A stretch of 4,055 bases of DNA from a virus. Taxonomy: Duplodnaviria; Heunggongvirae; Uroviricota; Caudoviricetes. Below are positions 1 through 4,055 of this stretch, one piece after another (within the stretch, counting starts at the first letter, position 1; each line of letters opens with the position of its first letter). The stretch is taken from the IMG/VR virus record IMGVR_UViG_2690316099_000008. One strand, given 5' to 3'. A program made the position numbers and the translations under genes. Below the pieces are notes generated by a model that worked only from the letters and a program-made list of their open reading frames with translations, did no database searches and had not been told where the DNA came from.

Positions 1-31
1 TCGCTCGCTCTCACCACTGAGCTAAAGGGCC
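1..31 (-). tRNA. 5' portion of a tRNA gene running off the left edge (acceptor-stem strand, D-arm, start of anticodon stem). Resembles Ile(CAU)-type tRNAs found downstream of Q in lambdoid/Stx-type phages; the anticodon lies outside the window.
   Basis: Minus strand from coordinate 31 reads GGCCCTT-TA-GCTC-AGTGGTGA-GAGC-G-AGCGA: 7-nt acceptor strand, U8, GCTC/GAGC D-stem with an 8-nt D-loop containing GG, then the anticodon-stem 5' strand. Similarity to Ile-type tRNA is from memory, not a search. Confidence 0.55.
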
Positions 32-68
32 GGGAGCAGAATAATAACGGTCCGTAATTAATTCCGCA

Positions 69-96
69 ATAAAAAACCCGCTCGGCGGCGGGTGTC
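69..96 (-). terminator. Rho-independent terminator, distal copy: GC-rich hairpin followed by a T-run on the minus strand.
   Basis: Minus strand reads ACCCGC-CGCCGA-GCGGGT followed by TTTTTTAT. The 25-nt core is identical to the copy at 170..197. Confidence 0.6.
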
Positions 97-169
97 GAAA
101 AAGCCAGCAAGCTGAAAGACAGGTATTCACCGCCACCAGCGCGTTTACTGTACTGACGCGATTTCAGTC

Positions 170-197
170 ATAAAAAACCCGCTCGGCGGCGGGTTGT
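170..197 (-). terminator. Rho-independent terminator, proximal copy (tR'-like), about 40-65 nt downstream of the predicted late transcription start.
   Basis: Minus strand reads AACCCGC-CGCCGA-GCGGGTT followed by TTTTTTAT (7-bp stem, 6-nt loop, U-tract). It sits immediately downstream of the Q gene and the pR'-like promoter. Confidence 0.6.
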
Positions 198-230
198 AGA
201 AACTCTTCTAACGTCAGGCATAAAACGCCC

Positions 231-270
231 ATCGTTATGACGAATTTACCACAGATTCCGGAAAAATCAA
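231..270 (-). promoter_or_regulatory. Lambda pR'-like late promoter with a sigma70-dependent pause element; the Q-utilisation region.
   Basis: Minus strand: -35 TTGATT (270..265), 16-nt spacer ending in TGg (extended -10), -10 TAAATT (248..243), 6 nt, then AACGAT (236..231) followed by GGG. As I recall it, lambda pR' has the same TAAATT-N6-AACGAT-GGG arrangement. The predicted start falls on the Q stop codon. Confidence 0.6.
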
Positions 271-1089
271 CCTAGTTACCTTTTTTAACTGCCGCTCAGC
301 CCATGCTTCTTCAATATCAAACCGGGTCACCAGCGCATCATAAAATTTCTTAACTGTTTTTTCCCATGACGCGCGTGTTATCTGGTTTGTCACCTCGCAT
401 ATAGCATTAAATGCCTCCGTTGATGGTAGTCTTTCATAGCCACGACCACCACAACGCTGGCAGTCTCTGATAACAGGCATACCACGTTTTACCGACTCTT
501 CACGATGAATGGCGACACCACGCCCACGGCAATCCTTACAGGCGGTGGAAACCTCACCCTTTCCGCCACACTCCGGACAGGCAACTTTTACCACCTCCCT
601 GACTTTTTTCCATTCTTCCCAGTAAGACGGATACACACCTTTCGTACACTTTGCCCATACCGGCGGCTTACCATCCGGATACTGGACCTTGTTTGTAAAA
701 ACTACGCTTTCAATAAATTTTTCCCCATAGCAACAAGGGCACTGCTTTTTACTCGCTGCGCTGCGGGCATAATCCTCAAAAGCGTACGAAGCCATAATGC
801 GCATCACTACCGGTTTTATTTCTGCCGGAAGTTTTCTCAACGCCGCCACACGATCGCACCGACTGAGTGCATAATCTGCCAGTAATTCTGTTGCCCGCGC
901 CCTGTCATTCATACTGATGCCCATTTTCCCCAGGAACGCAGAAAACCCCATCTCAGCCCGATTCTGTGTCATGCCCTGCGCGGCCATCACATCAGTGATA
1001 CTCAGCGCATCTTTCGACGTTGAGGCCGATGCATCAGTCAGGCCGGGGGATTTTGGGGAGTAGTATTTCGGTAAATCTTCCAGTTTCAT
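235..1089 (-). CDS. Q: Late-gene antitermination protein Q-like (284 aa) with a Cys-rich zinc-binding region.
   Basis: Intact 284-aa ORF. Position is diagnostic: directly downstream of rusA (ATGA start/stop overlap) and directly upstream of a lambda-like pR'/pause element and terminator. Contains CPCC plus three CxxCxGxG repeats (aa 117-213). Family assignment rests on synteny and recalled similarity to Q82/QuuQ-type prophage antiterminators, not on a search. Confidence 0.7.
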   Translation of the reverse strand: MKLEDLPKYYSPKSPGLTDASASTSKDALSITDVMAAQGMTQNRAEMGFSAFLGKMGISMNDRARATELLADYALSRCDRVAALRKLPAEIKPVVMRIMASYAFEDYARSAASKKQCPCCYGEKFIESVVFTNKVQYPDGKPPVWAKCTKGVYPSYWEEWKKVREVVKVACPECGGKGEVSTACKDCRGRGVAIHREESVKRGMPVIRDCQRCGGRGYERLPSTEAFNAICEVTNQITRASWEKTVKKFYDALVTRFDIEEAWAERQLKKVTRLIFPESVVNSS

Positions 1090-1460
1090 TTTTTGACCTG
1101 CTCTTCATGCATTATGGGGTAAATCTTCACCCCCAGACGTCCACCAGATACTGGCTGACCACGAACGATATTGATTTCATCAAACTGCTCATCGTCCATT
1201 AACACTCCCGCATGTGTCAGTGCATCCAGTGGTGCTTTCAGGATATTGTCCAGGTCACGACGGCGCTTATCCGGTGGCTCTGCAATAATCTTTATCGCCA
1301 GTCTTCCGGACAGGCTTAATTTCAGTCGCTGCTGACGGACAATAAGCGCCACATCCCGGCGATAACGCTCACCGGCTTTTGATACAAAATATGTGTTGTC
1401 ACGACGTCGCCAGTAAGTATTCACCGTCGGCGGATAAGGTAAAATAAACTCATGGCGCAT
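1086..1460 (-). CDS. rusA: Crossover junction endodeoxyribonuclease RusA (Holliday junction resolvase), 124 aa, intact.
   Basis: Translation carries RusA hallmarks: LPYPPTVNTYWRR near the N-terminus, the acidic catalytic block PDKRRRDLDN...LMDDEQ, and GGRL near the C-terminus. Its stop overlaps the Q start (ATGA) and its start overlaps the upstream gene stop (TGATG). Confidence 0.85.
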   Translation of the reverse strand: MRHEFILPYPPTVNTYWRRRDNTYFVSKAGERYRRDVALIVRQQRLKLSLSGRLAIKIIAEPPDKRRRDLDNILKAPLDALTHAGVLMDDEQFDEINIVRGQPVSGGRLGVKIYPIMHEEQVKK

Positions 1461-1717
1461 CAGCGCAGCACCTCCTGCACCAGTTTTTCAAACTTTCCGA
1501 CTCTGGTTTCCAGCTCTGCCACACAGTCCACCAGCTCATCTACTGCTTTCTGTGCGCGATGCTTCGCCTGCATCAGTTCCCGAAGCGCGGGTACCATATC
1601 TTTACGGATAGCGTCTTTTGTTATGCCCGTTTTTTCGAGTTGTTCAGCATGACGCAGCATTTCCTGCGCGTGTTTACGCAATTGTTCAGGGGTAAAAGTC
1701 ATTGTCTGGTTGTTCAA
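1460..1717 (-). CDS. Conserved hypothetical protein, 85 aa, helical and charged (likely coiled-coil), function unknown (copy 1).
   Basis: ORF conserved in two diverged copies in this window: by hand count about 30 nt differences over 258 bp but only 6 aa changes, i.e. mostly synonymous. Translationally coupled to rusA. The start may be TTG at 1717 (GGAG about 8 nt upstream) or the internal ATG at 1702. Confidence 0.7.
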   Translation of the reverse strand: MNNQTMTFTPEQLRKHAQEMLRHAEQLEKTGITKDAIRKDMVPALRELMQAKHRAQKAVDELVDCVAELETRVGKFEKLVQEVLR

Positions 1718-1837
1718 AAGAAACGCTCCATCTTACTGCTGTCAGTTCGTTTATTACTGTATCTGCGCGGATTGCCGGGCTTCATGGGAGTGGAAAGCAC
1801 CCGTGCACTTTCCTGGTCCACAGGCAGAAAATGTCCG
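1714..1837 (-). pseudogene. 3'-terminal fragment (last 41 codons) of a second DnaB-family helicase gene, truncated at its 5' side by an IS2 end.
   Basis: Minus-strand translation GHFLPVDQESARVLSTPMKPGNPRRYSNKRTDSSKMERFF* aligns in frame with the C-terminus of the intact helicase at 2292..3683. The IS2 left terminal repeat begins at 1838. Confidence 0.6.
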
Positions 1838-1879
1838 TAGACTGGCCCCCTGAATCTCCAGACAACCAGTATCACTTAA
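1838..1879 (+). mobile_element. IS2 left terminal inverted repeat (outer end at 1838, element interior to the right), followed by a single n at 1880; the element body is absent from the sequence.
   Basis: TAGACTGGCCCCCTGAATCTCCAGACAACCAGTATCACTTAA matches the IS2 left end as I recall it. The flanking sequence switches abruptly from helicase 3' end to mid-rusA across the n. Confidence 0.75.
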
Positions 1880-1880
1880 N

Positions 1881-2038
1881 CTTCCGGACAGGTTTAATTT
1901 CAGCCGCTGCTGGCGAACAATTAGCGTCACATCACGGCGATAACGCTCACCAACTTTTGATACAAAATATGTGCTGCCACGACGTCGCCAGTAAGTATTC
2001 ACCGTCGGCGGATAAGGTAAAATAAACTCATGGCGCAT
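1881..2038 (-). pseudogene. rusA: 5' part (first ~52 codons) of a second rusA copy, truncated by the IS2 end / n junction.
   Basis: MRHEFILPYPPTVNTYWRRRGSTYFVSKVGERYRRDVTLIVRQQRLKLNLSG... matches the N-terminus of RusA at 1086..1460. The six-frame ORF continues through the n into IS2 sequence, so the 94-aa ORF is chimeric. Confidence 0.7.
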
Positions 2039-2295
2039 CAGCGCAGCACCTCCTGCACCATTTTTTCAAACTTTCCAACTTTGGTTTCCAGCTCTGCCAC
2101 ACAATCAACGAGCTCATCCACCGCTTTTTGTGCGCGATGTTTCGCCTGCATCAGTTCCCTGAGCGCTGGCACCATATCCCGACGAATGGCATCTTTTGTT
2201 ACACCTGTTTTTTCCAGTTGTTCCGCCTGTCGCAACATTTCCTGCGCGTGTTTACGCAATTGTTCAGAGGTAAAAGTCATTGTCTGGTTGTTCAA
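2038..2295 (-). CDS. Conserved hypothetical protein, 85 aa (copy 2 of the 1460..1717 gene).
   Basis: 93% aa identity to copy 1 (6 substitutions, mostly conservative) despite about 88% nt identity. TTG start overlaps the helicase stop (TTGA) with GGAG about 8 nt upstream; alternative ATG at 2280. Confidence 0.7.
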   Translation of the reverse strand: MNNQTMTFTSEQLRKHAQEMLRQAEQLEKTGVTKDAIRRDMVPALRELMQAKHRAQKAVDELVDCVAELETKVGKFEKMVQEVLR

Positions 2296-3683
2296 AAGAA
2301 ACGCTCCATCTTACTGCTGTCGGTACGTGTATTGCTGTATCTGCGCGGCTGGGGCTGCCGCATTGGGGTGGAAAGAACCTGTGCGCTTTCCTGGTCCACA
2401 GGCAGAAAATGTCCGTTATAAAAACGCCGGTAAATCGTCCCCAGAGAACCGTTACGTTGTTTCGTGATATTAATTTCTGCTATGCCTGTAGCCTGTGTAT
2501 CCGGGTTGTACACTTCATCCCTGTAAAGCATCAGAATGATGTCTGCATCCGCCTCTATTTCTCCGGAATTTTTCAGGTCTGAGTTCATGGGACGTTTATT
2601 GGGTCTGGACTCCACACCGCGGGAGAGCTGGCTCAGCGCAATCAACGGAAAACCACCGGATTTTGCCAGGCCTTTAAGCCCCTTTGAGATTTCACCCACG
2701 GCAAGGTCATGACGCCCCGTGGTTCGGGTTTTTATCAGCCCGAGATAATCAACCACCACCAGCGCCGTTTCCGGATGTTTAATCAGATGGTGTTTCGTTG
2801 TTGCGCATATCTCATCAATGGTCAGGTTCGCCTGGTCCACCATCCAGATATTGCGCCCGGTCATCCGCCCCACCCCTTGTGAGAAACGCGCCCAGTCTTC
2901 ATCTTCAAAGTGAGCCACAGATTTCAGGCGTGATACTGGCATCCCTCCAGCCGCAGACACCATACGTTCACCAATCTGGATGTTCGCCATCTCCATGGTG
3001 AACAGAAGCACACCATGCCCCTGCTCAGTCACCTTGTCGATGATGTCCAGCGCAAGTTCGGTTTTCCCCATCGAAGGACGGGCGGCAATGAATACCAGGT
3101 CTCCGGGCTCCATACCGCCTGTTTTTGCGTCCAGTTCATCAATACCGGTCATCAACGTCCTGGATTTCTCCAGCCCCTGATTCCGGCATTCAACACGCTC
3201 AACCACTTCCGGAAGCACATCATCAATATGTACCGGCTGAATGACGCCCTTTCCTGTCGACAGTGTGACCATCATGTTCTGCGCATCCTTCAGGGCATCT
3301 TCAGCTGCTTCACAGGTATGCGCATCACGTAATTTCTGCAGCGCCTCATTCAGTGTTTTTTCTGCATCGCGCAGTGCGGCATTGCGCCGCAACGCTGCAA
3401 CATAGTGCTCCAGTGAAGACTTCACCCAGGTTTTACGCCCGGTATCAGTAATCACCGGGGCAAGTTCCGGCATCTCATTACACAACAGCACGGGGTCAAT
3501 CACTCCTGAAACACGGGCCTGTCTGCAGATGCCTGTGTAGATATCCCGATACGCTCGTACAGAAAAAATGTCCGCCGGTAGTGTGATCAGAATATCCATC
3601 ACTTCATGATCTGCCCCACGCAGAAAGAATGCGCCAATGACAGCGCCTTCCAGGTCATCATTACGCCAGACTGGTGTTGTCAT
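2292..3683 (-). CDS. DnaB-family replicative DNA helicase, phage-encoded, 464 aa from the ATG at 3683.
   Basis: Walker A GDLVFIAARPSMGKT; DnaB C-terminal domain blocks (VVVDYLGLI, LSQLSRGVESRPNKRPMNSDLKNSGEIEADADIILMLYRDEVY, KQRNGSLGTI); DnaB N-terminal domain similarity. GAGGTG Shine-Dalgarno 7 nt upstream of the ATG. The longer 510-aa ORF in the track starts at a GTG inside the IS2 end and is rejected. Confidence 0.85.
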   Translation of the reverse strand: MTTPVWRNDDLEGAVIGAFFLRGADHEVMDILITLPADIFSVRAYRDIYTGICRQARVSGVIDPVLLCNEMPELAPVITDTGRKTWVKSSLEHYVAALRRNAALRDAEKTLNEALQKLRDAHTCEAAEDALKDAQNMMVTLSTGKGVIQPVHIDDVLPEVVERVECRNQGLEKSRTLMTGIDELDAKTGGMEPGDLVFIAARPSMGKTELALDIIDKVTEQGHGVLLFTMEMANIQIGERMVSAAGGMPVSRLKSVAHFEDEDWARFSQGVGRMTGRNIWMVDQANLTIDEICATTKHHLIKHPETALVVVDYLGLIKTRTTGRHDLAVGEISKGLKGLAKSGGFPLIALSQLSRGVESRPNKRPMNSDLKNSGEIEADADIILMLYRDEVYNPDTQATGIAEINITKQRNGSLGTIYRRFYNGHFLPVDQESAQVLSTPMRQPQPRRYSNTRTDSSKMERFF

Positions 3684-3787
3684 GCAGCCACACCTCTGAT
3701 ACAAGAACGGTAGCTGGGCCAGTTGAACGACAACCAGTTGCGCCCCCCGTCTGTGATCCTGTCGGCAATGCGGGGGCTGATGAACGC

Positions 3788-3840
3788 TGGATTTGCCCCT
3801 ATATTTCCAGACACCTGTTATCACTTAACCCATTACTGGC
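3788..3840 (-). mobile_element. IS2 right terminal inverted repeat (outer end at 3788, element interior toward higher coordinates), running into the N gap.
   Basis: Plus strand TGGATTTGCCCCTATATTTCCAGACACCTGTTATCACTTAACCCATTAC is the reverse complement of the IS2 right end as I recall it. It lies 104 bp upstream of the helicase start codon. Confidence 0.75.
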
Positions 3841-4022
3841 NNNNNNNNNNNNNNNNNNNNNNNNNNNNNNNNNNNNNNNNNNNNNNNNNNNNNNNNNNNN
3901 NNNNNNNNNNNNNNNNNNNNNNNNNNNNNNNNNNNNNNNNNNNNNNNNNNNNNNNNNNNNNNNNNNNNNNNNNNNNNNNNNNNNNNNNNNNNNNNNNNNN
4001 NNNNNNNNNNNNNNNNNNNNNN
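3841..4022. other. Assembly gap (182 N).
   Basis: Run of n characters; presumably the collapsed IS2 body and/or unknown sequence. Confidence 0.95.
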
Positions 4023-4055
4023 ACCGCCTGCTTTCTGATCTACCGCAAATGCTAA

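Follow-up and report, generated by a model that had tools for sequence, protein, structure and literature searches.

A late-gene switch and a tRNA fragment at the contig edge

The stretch analysed here (the window, 4,055 nt) is the entire contig CXDD01000305.1 of GCA_001253215.1, and the record holds nothing beyond coordinate 1. Read along the minus strand towards that end, it carries an antiterminator gene, a late promoter with a short leader, two copies of an intrinsic terminator with an inserted segment between them, a promoter-like element and the first 31 nt of a tRNA gene. The antiterminator gene (235-1089, minus strand) encodes a 284-aa protein of the lambda-Q family (PF03589, E 7e-55), a family that lambda Q itself also hits. 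The protein is 31% identical to lambda Q over the full length, has a roughly 70-aa insert with extra CxxC motifs, and matches the solved lambda Q structures (PDB 7UBM, E 4e-40).

The predicted late promoter pR′ (243-270, minus strand) sits within the 3′ end of the Q reading frame and is invariant across relatives. It comprises a -35 TTGATT (270-265), a 16-nt spacer that ends in TGG to give an extended -10, and a -10 TAAATT (248-243). Lambda pR′ (J02459) is built as TTGACT, 16 nt, TAAATT, 6 nt and AACGATGGG, and its TAAATT-tgactc-AACGATGGG aligns with TAAATT-cgtcat-AACGATGGG in the window. The AACGATGGG element (236-228), which in lambda is the pause-inducing region, opens the predicted pR′ leader (196-236, minus strand). 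The shared geometry and the shared register of this element indicate a promoter geometry and a sigma-dependent pause element as in lambda. By the same alignment, transcription would start at A236, inside the Q stop codon. The leader ends at the intrinsic terminator tR′ (170-195, minus strand; stem-loop 195-176, T tract 175-170), which is homologous to the post-Q terminator of Stx2 phages. The window thus holds the parts of a lambda-type late antitermination system: a Q-family protein, a pR′ with a predicted -10-like pause element and an intrinsic terminator. A preliminary description of this DNA had placed the tRNA directly downstream of a Q/pR′/tR′ module, and the PF03589 match, the lambda-like pR′ and the terminators confirm that module.

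In the mechanism that we propose, pR′ (270-243) would fire constitutively and RNA polymerase would pause at the AACGAT element. Without Q, the polymerase would stop at tR′ (195-170), with the second terminator copy (93-70) as an additional stop in this contig, and would leave a short RNA, a leader about 62-67 nt long. With Q, it would read into the tRNA or tRNAs and the remaining late genes. The likeness to the lambda late module (Q, pR′, 6S RNA, tR′) extends to the Pfam family, the -10 TAAATT, the length of the spacer (16 nt), the 6 nt to the start, the AACGATGGG initial transcribed sequence and the intrinsic terminator downstream. The -35/-10 spacer, where the lambda Q-binding element lies, is by contrast unrelated in sequence. 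The lambda leader is 194 nt long, whereas about 65 nt is predicted in the window; the promoter in the window, unlike that of lambda, overlaps the end of a Q reading frame of 284 codons, and the slot behind tR′, which has no tRNA in lambda, is occupied by one here.

Several variants of this module were seen among relatives. The window Q owes its 284 residues to the absence of one copy of an 8-bp repeat (AGGTAACT/AGGTAACA; 235-300, minus strand). With both copies, the Q of relatives terminates after ...KKVTR at 273 aa, the exact endpoint of lambda Q. The 11 residues added in the window are encoded across the pR′ -35, spacer and -10, and the frame then stops at the transcription start. At position 233 the window agrees with lambda and some E. 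coli prophages, with a pause element reading AACGAT. The element reads AACTAT both in the eight complete Shigella-like chromosomes and in all other contigs with an identical Q protein; one base of a functionally critical motif is polymorphic. E. coli UTME-2 (L026 3869-4640) carries the same terminator, flank and tRNA-Ile behind a different antiterminator-like protein of 184 aa, related to DUF1133 / PF06530; the tR′-tRNA block appears to be exchanged independently of Q type.

At the left edge, the reverse complement of positions 1-31 reads GGCCCTT-T-A-GCTC-AGTGGTGA-GAGC-G-AGCGA. In order, this gives the 5′ side of the acceptor stem, U8, A9, a D stem and loop containing G18 and G19, then position 26 and the 5′ side of the anticodon stem. 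By homology to intact genes, these are the first 31 of the 76 nt of an ileZ-type tRNA-Ile(CAU) gene on the minus strand, whose anticodon and 3′ half lie beyond the contig end. ARAGORN and Rfam call no tRNA in the window because only 31/76 nt are there, and the identification therefore goes through homology. This edge had been described from the letters as a canonical tRNA 5′ half on the minus strand, and the 31-mer and its intact homologues show both the coordinates and the description to be exact.

The first 31 nt of the intact 76-nt gene are identical (31/31) in all fetched relatives that have it (L001-L008, L012, L013 and L015) and, by their sequences, in L035-L042; two Stx2 phages are among these loci. 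The 40 nt upstream are likewise identical in 16 loci, and phage mEp460_ev081 matches a 75-nt stretch of flank plus half-tRNA at 75/75. When window 1-1100 was used as the query, 3,215 of 5,426 complete E. coli genomes matched, and there the feature at the left end is annotated tRNA-Ile. A chance match is excluded, given an exact 31-mer joined to an exact 40-nt flank that is common to 3,020 of the 5,426 genomes, at up to 12 places per genome. Past the contig end the gene would be expected to continue into ...CTCATAATCGCC..., as in the homologues, from which its presumed intactness in the source genome is also taken.

tRNA type and putative promoter

The intact gene forms a full cloverleaf whose acceptor, D and T stems have 7, 4 and 5 bp, with the loop CUCAUAA; its anticodon stem has five positions, with four Watson-Crick pairs and an A27-C43 mismatch. 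An intact homologue with the identical 31-mer and flank reaches 72.5 bits with the Rfam tRNA model (RF00005; gathering score 29), and ARAGORN calls the intact gene in 20 loci. A minimum-free-energy fold of the intact tRNA gave no cloverleaf, as is usual for thermodynamic folding, and the covariance model and ARAGORN were preferred.

Every relative that shares the 31-mer has CAT at positions 34-36. Taken at face value, a CAU anticodon would make this an elongator tRNA-Met gene rather than one for tRNA-Ile2; tRNA-Met(cat) is the ARAGORN output for every intact copy, and several phage records are annotated tRNA-Met. However, ARAGORN gives tRNA-Met for any CAU anticodon, whereas RefSeq PGAP, which uses an Ile2-aware classifier, labels the intact gene tRNA-Ile, and some Stx2 phage records have 'ileZ: tRNA-Ile'. 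The intact gene matches K-12 ileX at 68/76 positions but metT/metU at only 52/77, and the 31 visible nt match ileX at 27/31 against 21/32 for metT/metU. Furthermore, C4 and C5 are present in the window and their partners G69 and G68 are kept in the intact homologues (acceptor GGCCCTT / AAGGGCC). The C4-G69 and C5-G68 pairs are reported by Ikeuchi et al. 2005 to let TilS tell tRNA-Ile2 from tRNA-Met. We consider an elongator tRNA-Met highly improbable; judged by these features, the tRNA body is of the tRNA-Ile2 type. Host TilS would then modify C34 to lysidine, and the tRNA would decode the rare codon AUA.

The nearest chromosomal counterparts of this predicted tRNA-Ile2 are K-12 ileX/ileY, which are lysidine-modified. 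The 68/76 match to ileX comes with the same CUCAUAA loop, C4 and C5, and the same D arm; the eight substitutions include G27-U43 in ileX in place of the A27-C43 mismatch of the prophage tRNA. Whereas ileX/ileY are chromosomal, the window tRNA is prophage-borne and lies behind a late-gene terminator, and on this resemblance it is a paralogue of them. The names ileZ, argN and argO, as used here, come from phage record annotation; a literature search on ileZ gave nothing useful.

ATA accounts for 9.6-12.3 per 1000 codons in the window and related prophage genes. Four chromosomal flank genes of one relative (L001) have 14.8 per 1000 and are a poor codon-usage control. The E. coli genome average is about 4-5 per 1000, and the AUA enrichment of the phage genes, which depends on this average, is weak and circumstantial support for the role of the tRNA.

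A promoter-like element (41-69, minus strand) precedes the tRNA, with a -35 TTGCGG (69-64), a 17-nt spacer and a -10 TATTAT (46-41). Between this -10 and tRNA position 1 lies a G+C-rich discriminator, TCTGCTCCC. The two hexamers are kept across three flank types while neighbouring bases vary. A consensus promoter scan of the window did not call the element, because its -35 matches the consensus at only 3/6 positions. In the Sakai Stx2a phage, a start site has been mapped between tR′ and stx2AB, and the tRNAs seem to be transcribed from it (PMC7547250). With a sigma-70-like promoter of its own (69-41), the window tRNA would be made in the lysogen too, and it is probably expressed there from this predicted promoter, with a start expected near window 34-31, in addition to Q-dependent read-through.

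The contig end and the duplicated terminator

Three pieces make up the contig, which is a scaffold: (i) 1-1879, (ii) 1881-3840 and, after 182 N, a third one of 33 nt. Piece (i) ends in nt 1-42 of IS2 (1838-1879) and is followed by a single n at 1880; piece (ii) ends in the opposite IS2 end (3788-3840), ahead of the N gap (3841-4022). The 33-nt piece (4023-4055) matches none of the fetched loci. Piece (ii) is identical at 1960/1960 positions to HE616528.1, which we take to be Shigella sonnei 53G. Over 170-1879, piece (i) is 99.65% identical to the same record, about 1.7 Mb away from the match of piece (ii). An ipaH-like gene and dense IS content around the HE616528.1 match fit Shigella sonnei. 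Window 1303-1860 and 1881-2416 hold paralogous orf85-rusA copies, about 89-91% identical, from two different prophage remnants. Given the distance of ~1.7 Mb, the IS2 termini and the paralogous copies, the join at 1880 is probably not a real adjacency.

Insertion sequences also mark the prophage that carries Q and the tRNA. Its DnaB-like helicase gene (window 1838 / L038 4286-7623) is interrupted by IS2; in complete chromosomes this IS2 is itself interrupted by an IS21-family element, and the late region downstream is cut by another IS past DUF1737. The broken helicase gene and late region mean that the prophage is a dead remnant in which Q, pR′, tR′ and the tRNAs have been retained.

In a remnant prophage, in a source genome rich in insertion sequences and with two other scaffold piece ends formed by IS2, the tRNA could itself be truly truncated, a dead fragment broken, for example, by an IS. 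The scaffold ends that do terminate in an IS carry 42-49 nt of IS2, however, whereas the left end carries none and consists of tRNA sequence only. In each of the eight complete chromosomes that share the RusA-Q module, the tRNA is intact and tRNA-Arg comes next. Furthermore, the fragment is a 5′ half with its promoter, whereas integrase attachment sites duplicate the 3′ half instead. We judge a true truncation to be very unlikely. The simplest explanation for the end of the contig would be a break at a repeat, as the tRNA sequence recurs in several prophages; draft contig L009 likewise stops 24 nt into the same tRNA. An estimate of the assembly k-mer length from the 31-36 nt of shared sequence at contig ends was set aside as overly speculative. 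As a multi-copy prophage repeat, the tRNA-Ile(CAU) behind Q is a break point for draft assemblies.

A second copy of the intrinsic terminator (70-93, minus strand; stem-loop 93-76, T tract 75-70) lies between tR′ and the tRNA. The two copies make up a repeat family (D2), 91% identical and 101 nt apart, and two to three terminator-like sites were found in the window against 0.6 expected. Rfam Trp_leader hits (22 and 25.7 bits, gathering score 41) proved to be merely the terminator hairpin and were rejected. Canonical relatives have 102 nt and a single terminator from the Q stop to the tRNA; in the window this distance is 203 nt. An inserted segment (94-169, minus strand), with the second terminator copy after it, accounts for the additional 101 nt. 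The segment matches exactly what stands behind tR′ in L012, where a methylase gene and then the tRNAs come next. The corresponding position in Stx2 phages matches it at about 90%, and the canonical layout lacks it.

The junction ...TTTTTCGACA|CCCGCCGCC... has microhomology only. The two-terminator junction gave no match as a 45-mer in genome contigs or as a 35-mer in viral contigs and metagenome contigs, and none of the complete E. coli genomes covers at least 80% of window 1-260; the junction was thus absent from the complete E. coli genomes, species-representative genomes and viral and metagenome contigs searched. The duplication at 70-195 may be either a real recombinant or a gap-filling chimera of two prophage copies. 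A real event would have joined a Shigella sonnei-like prophage remnant at tR′ to a Stx-type methylase-tRNA phage through a 7-of-8-nt microhomology (TTTCGACA / TTTCTACA), and we regard this as possible but somewhat doubtful. The duplication with its insert is the sole unusual feature. If it is a true recombinant, two tandem late terminators stand before the tRNA, the pR′ insulation of the tRNA and late region might be tighter, and the junction of Q and tRNA would bear a visible footprint of exchange between a Stx-type phage and a cryptic prophage.

Downstream layouts and the relation to Stx phages

Eight complete chromosomes, HE616528.1 among them, have the same RusA and 284-aa Q. In all eight the order is Q, tR′, 40 nt, tRNA(CAU), 100 nt, tRNA-Arg(UCU), DUF3927, an IraM/PmrD-like gene, a DUF1737 fragment and an insertion sequence, and neither a lysis cassette nor stx was found downstream in these chromosomes. 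This layout is our best prediction, drawn from relatives, for the source isolate beyond coordinate 1. E. coli relatives with the same flank have variable cargo (tRNA-Arg or Lys/Thr/Gly tRNAs, TolA-like, TerB, SASA esterase, IraM), with the lysis cassette after the cargo and stx in none of them. Taken together, the relatives that share the window's tRNA flank carry tRNA-Arg and small ORFs (DUF3927, IraM/PmrD-like, DUF1737, TolA-like, TerB), and next a lysis cassette or, in the eight chromosomes, an IS element. tRNAs downstream of Q have been reported in SfI, Sf6, ST64T, PS3 and P21 (PMC3636060).

The tRNA-Arg(UCU) behind tRNA-Ile itself varies. In one draft genome (L013 1321-1397) a one-base change turns its anticodon to UUU, which ARAGORN calls Lys, and in phage vB_EcoS-640R1 (L003 about 10150-10200) it is cut off just past the anticodon. 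Recombination and mutation seem to have a hot spot in this tRNA cluster.

In Stx2 phages the order is Q, tR′, a small ORF, a methylase gene, tRNA-Ile, Arg, Arg and stx2AB, with an identical tRNA-Ile. According to the passage in PMC3636060 that cites it, an 'ileX' tRNA near the Stx2 operon was first noted by Schmidt et al. 1997. The ileZ of Stx2-converting phages (933W/Sp5 type) has the same 76-nt sequence in L004 and L015 and is identical to the window over the 31 visible nt; it has a homologous promoter-like flank (91.5% over 71 nt) and, like the window tRNA, is placed between Q and the late genes. It follows a small ORF and a DNA methylase gene, however, whereas the window tRNA comes directly after a tR′ terminator, 38 nt from the T tract. 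The closest relatives of the window have one tRNA-Arg(UCU) and no stx, whereas Stx2 phages have argN plus argO and then stx. The short pR′-tR′ RNA of Stx phages, StxS (PMC7547250), also resembles the arrangement here in its constitutive pR′ transcript, its homologous terminator and the separate promoter of the tRNAs. Its 258-nt precursor is processed to 74 nt; the leader of about 65 nt predicted in the window shares just the terminator region with it.

The expectation that an ileZ/argN/argO-type tRNA would lie between Q/pR′/tR′ and the late genes was borne out, as relatives show the same slot and Stx2 phage records annotate ileZ. The preliminary description had also supposed, from synteny, that a toxin might come next, which the closest relatives with the window's tRNA flank, carrying no stx, speak against. 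In its strongest form, this supposition has the tRNA mark the start of Shiga-toxin cargo, with stx just beyond the window: Stx2 phages have the identical tRNA ahead of stx2AB, one of these phages (Stx2_EH1910) carries a Q of the same type at 89.5% DNA identity, and a segment typical of the Stx layout is present in the window. In Stx phages, however, the tRNA comes after a methylase gene, and its upstream flank (91.5% identical) differs from that of the window, which is of the non-Stx type; none of the 13 or more relatives with the latter flank has stx after the tRNA. Even L006 and L012, which combine an identical Q with the methylase layout, have no stx between the tRNAs and the IraM-like gene. 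That the tRNA announces stx just past coordinate 1 seems to us exceedingly improbable, and toxin cargo in the source isolate is, from these comparisons, unlikely.

What the comparisons show is the identity at the sequence level, the family to which Q belongs, the motifs for promoter, pause and termination, and the gene order of relatives, whereas expression, modification, AUA decoding and the cause of the contig break are inferred. We read window 31..1 as the 5′ part of an intact-type prophage tRNA-Ile2 (CAU, ileZ family) in the usual lambdoid slot after the late switch, with a probability of about 0.93. It is an ordinary, known prophage tRNA in its known place, and the truncated gene and its phage context had been recognised correctly from 31 bases without tools. 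The consequence beyond correct annotation is small. What comes after the identical tRNA is stx2 in Stx phages but harmless small ORFs in other settings, so the tRNA alone is uninformative on toxin carriage; it is the upstream flank and the layout that tell the cases apart.
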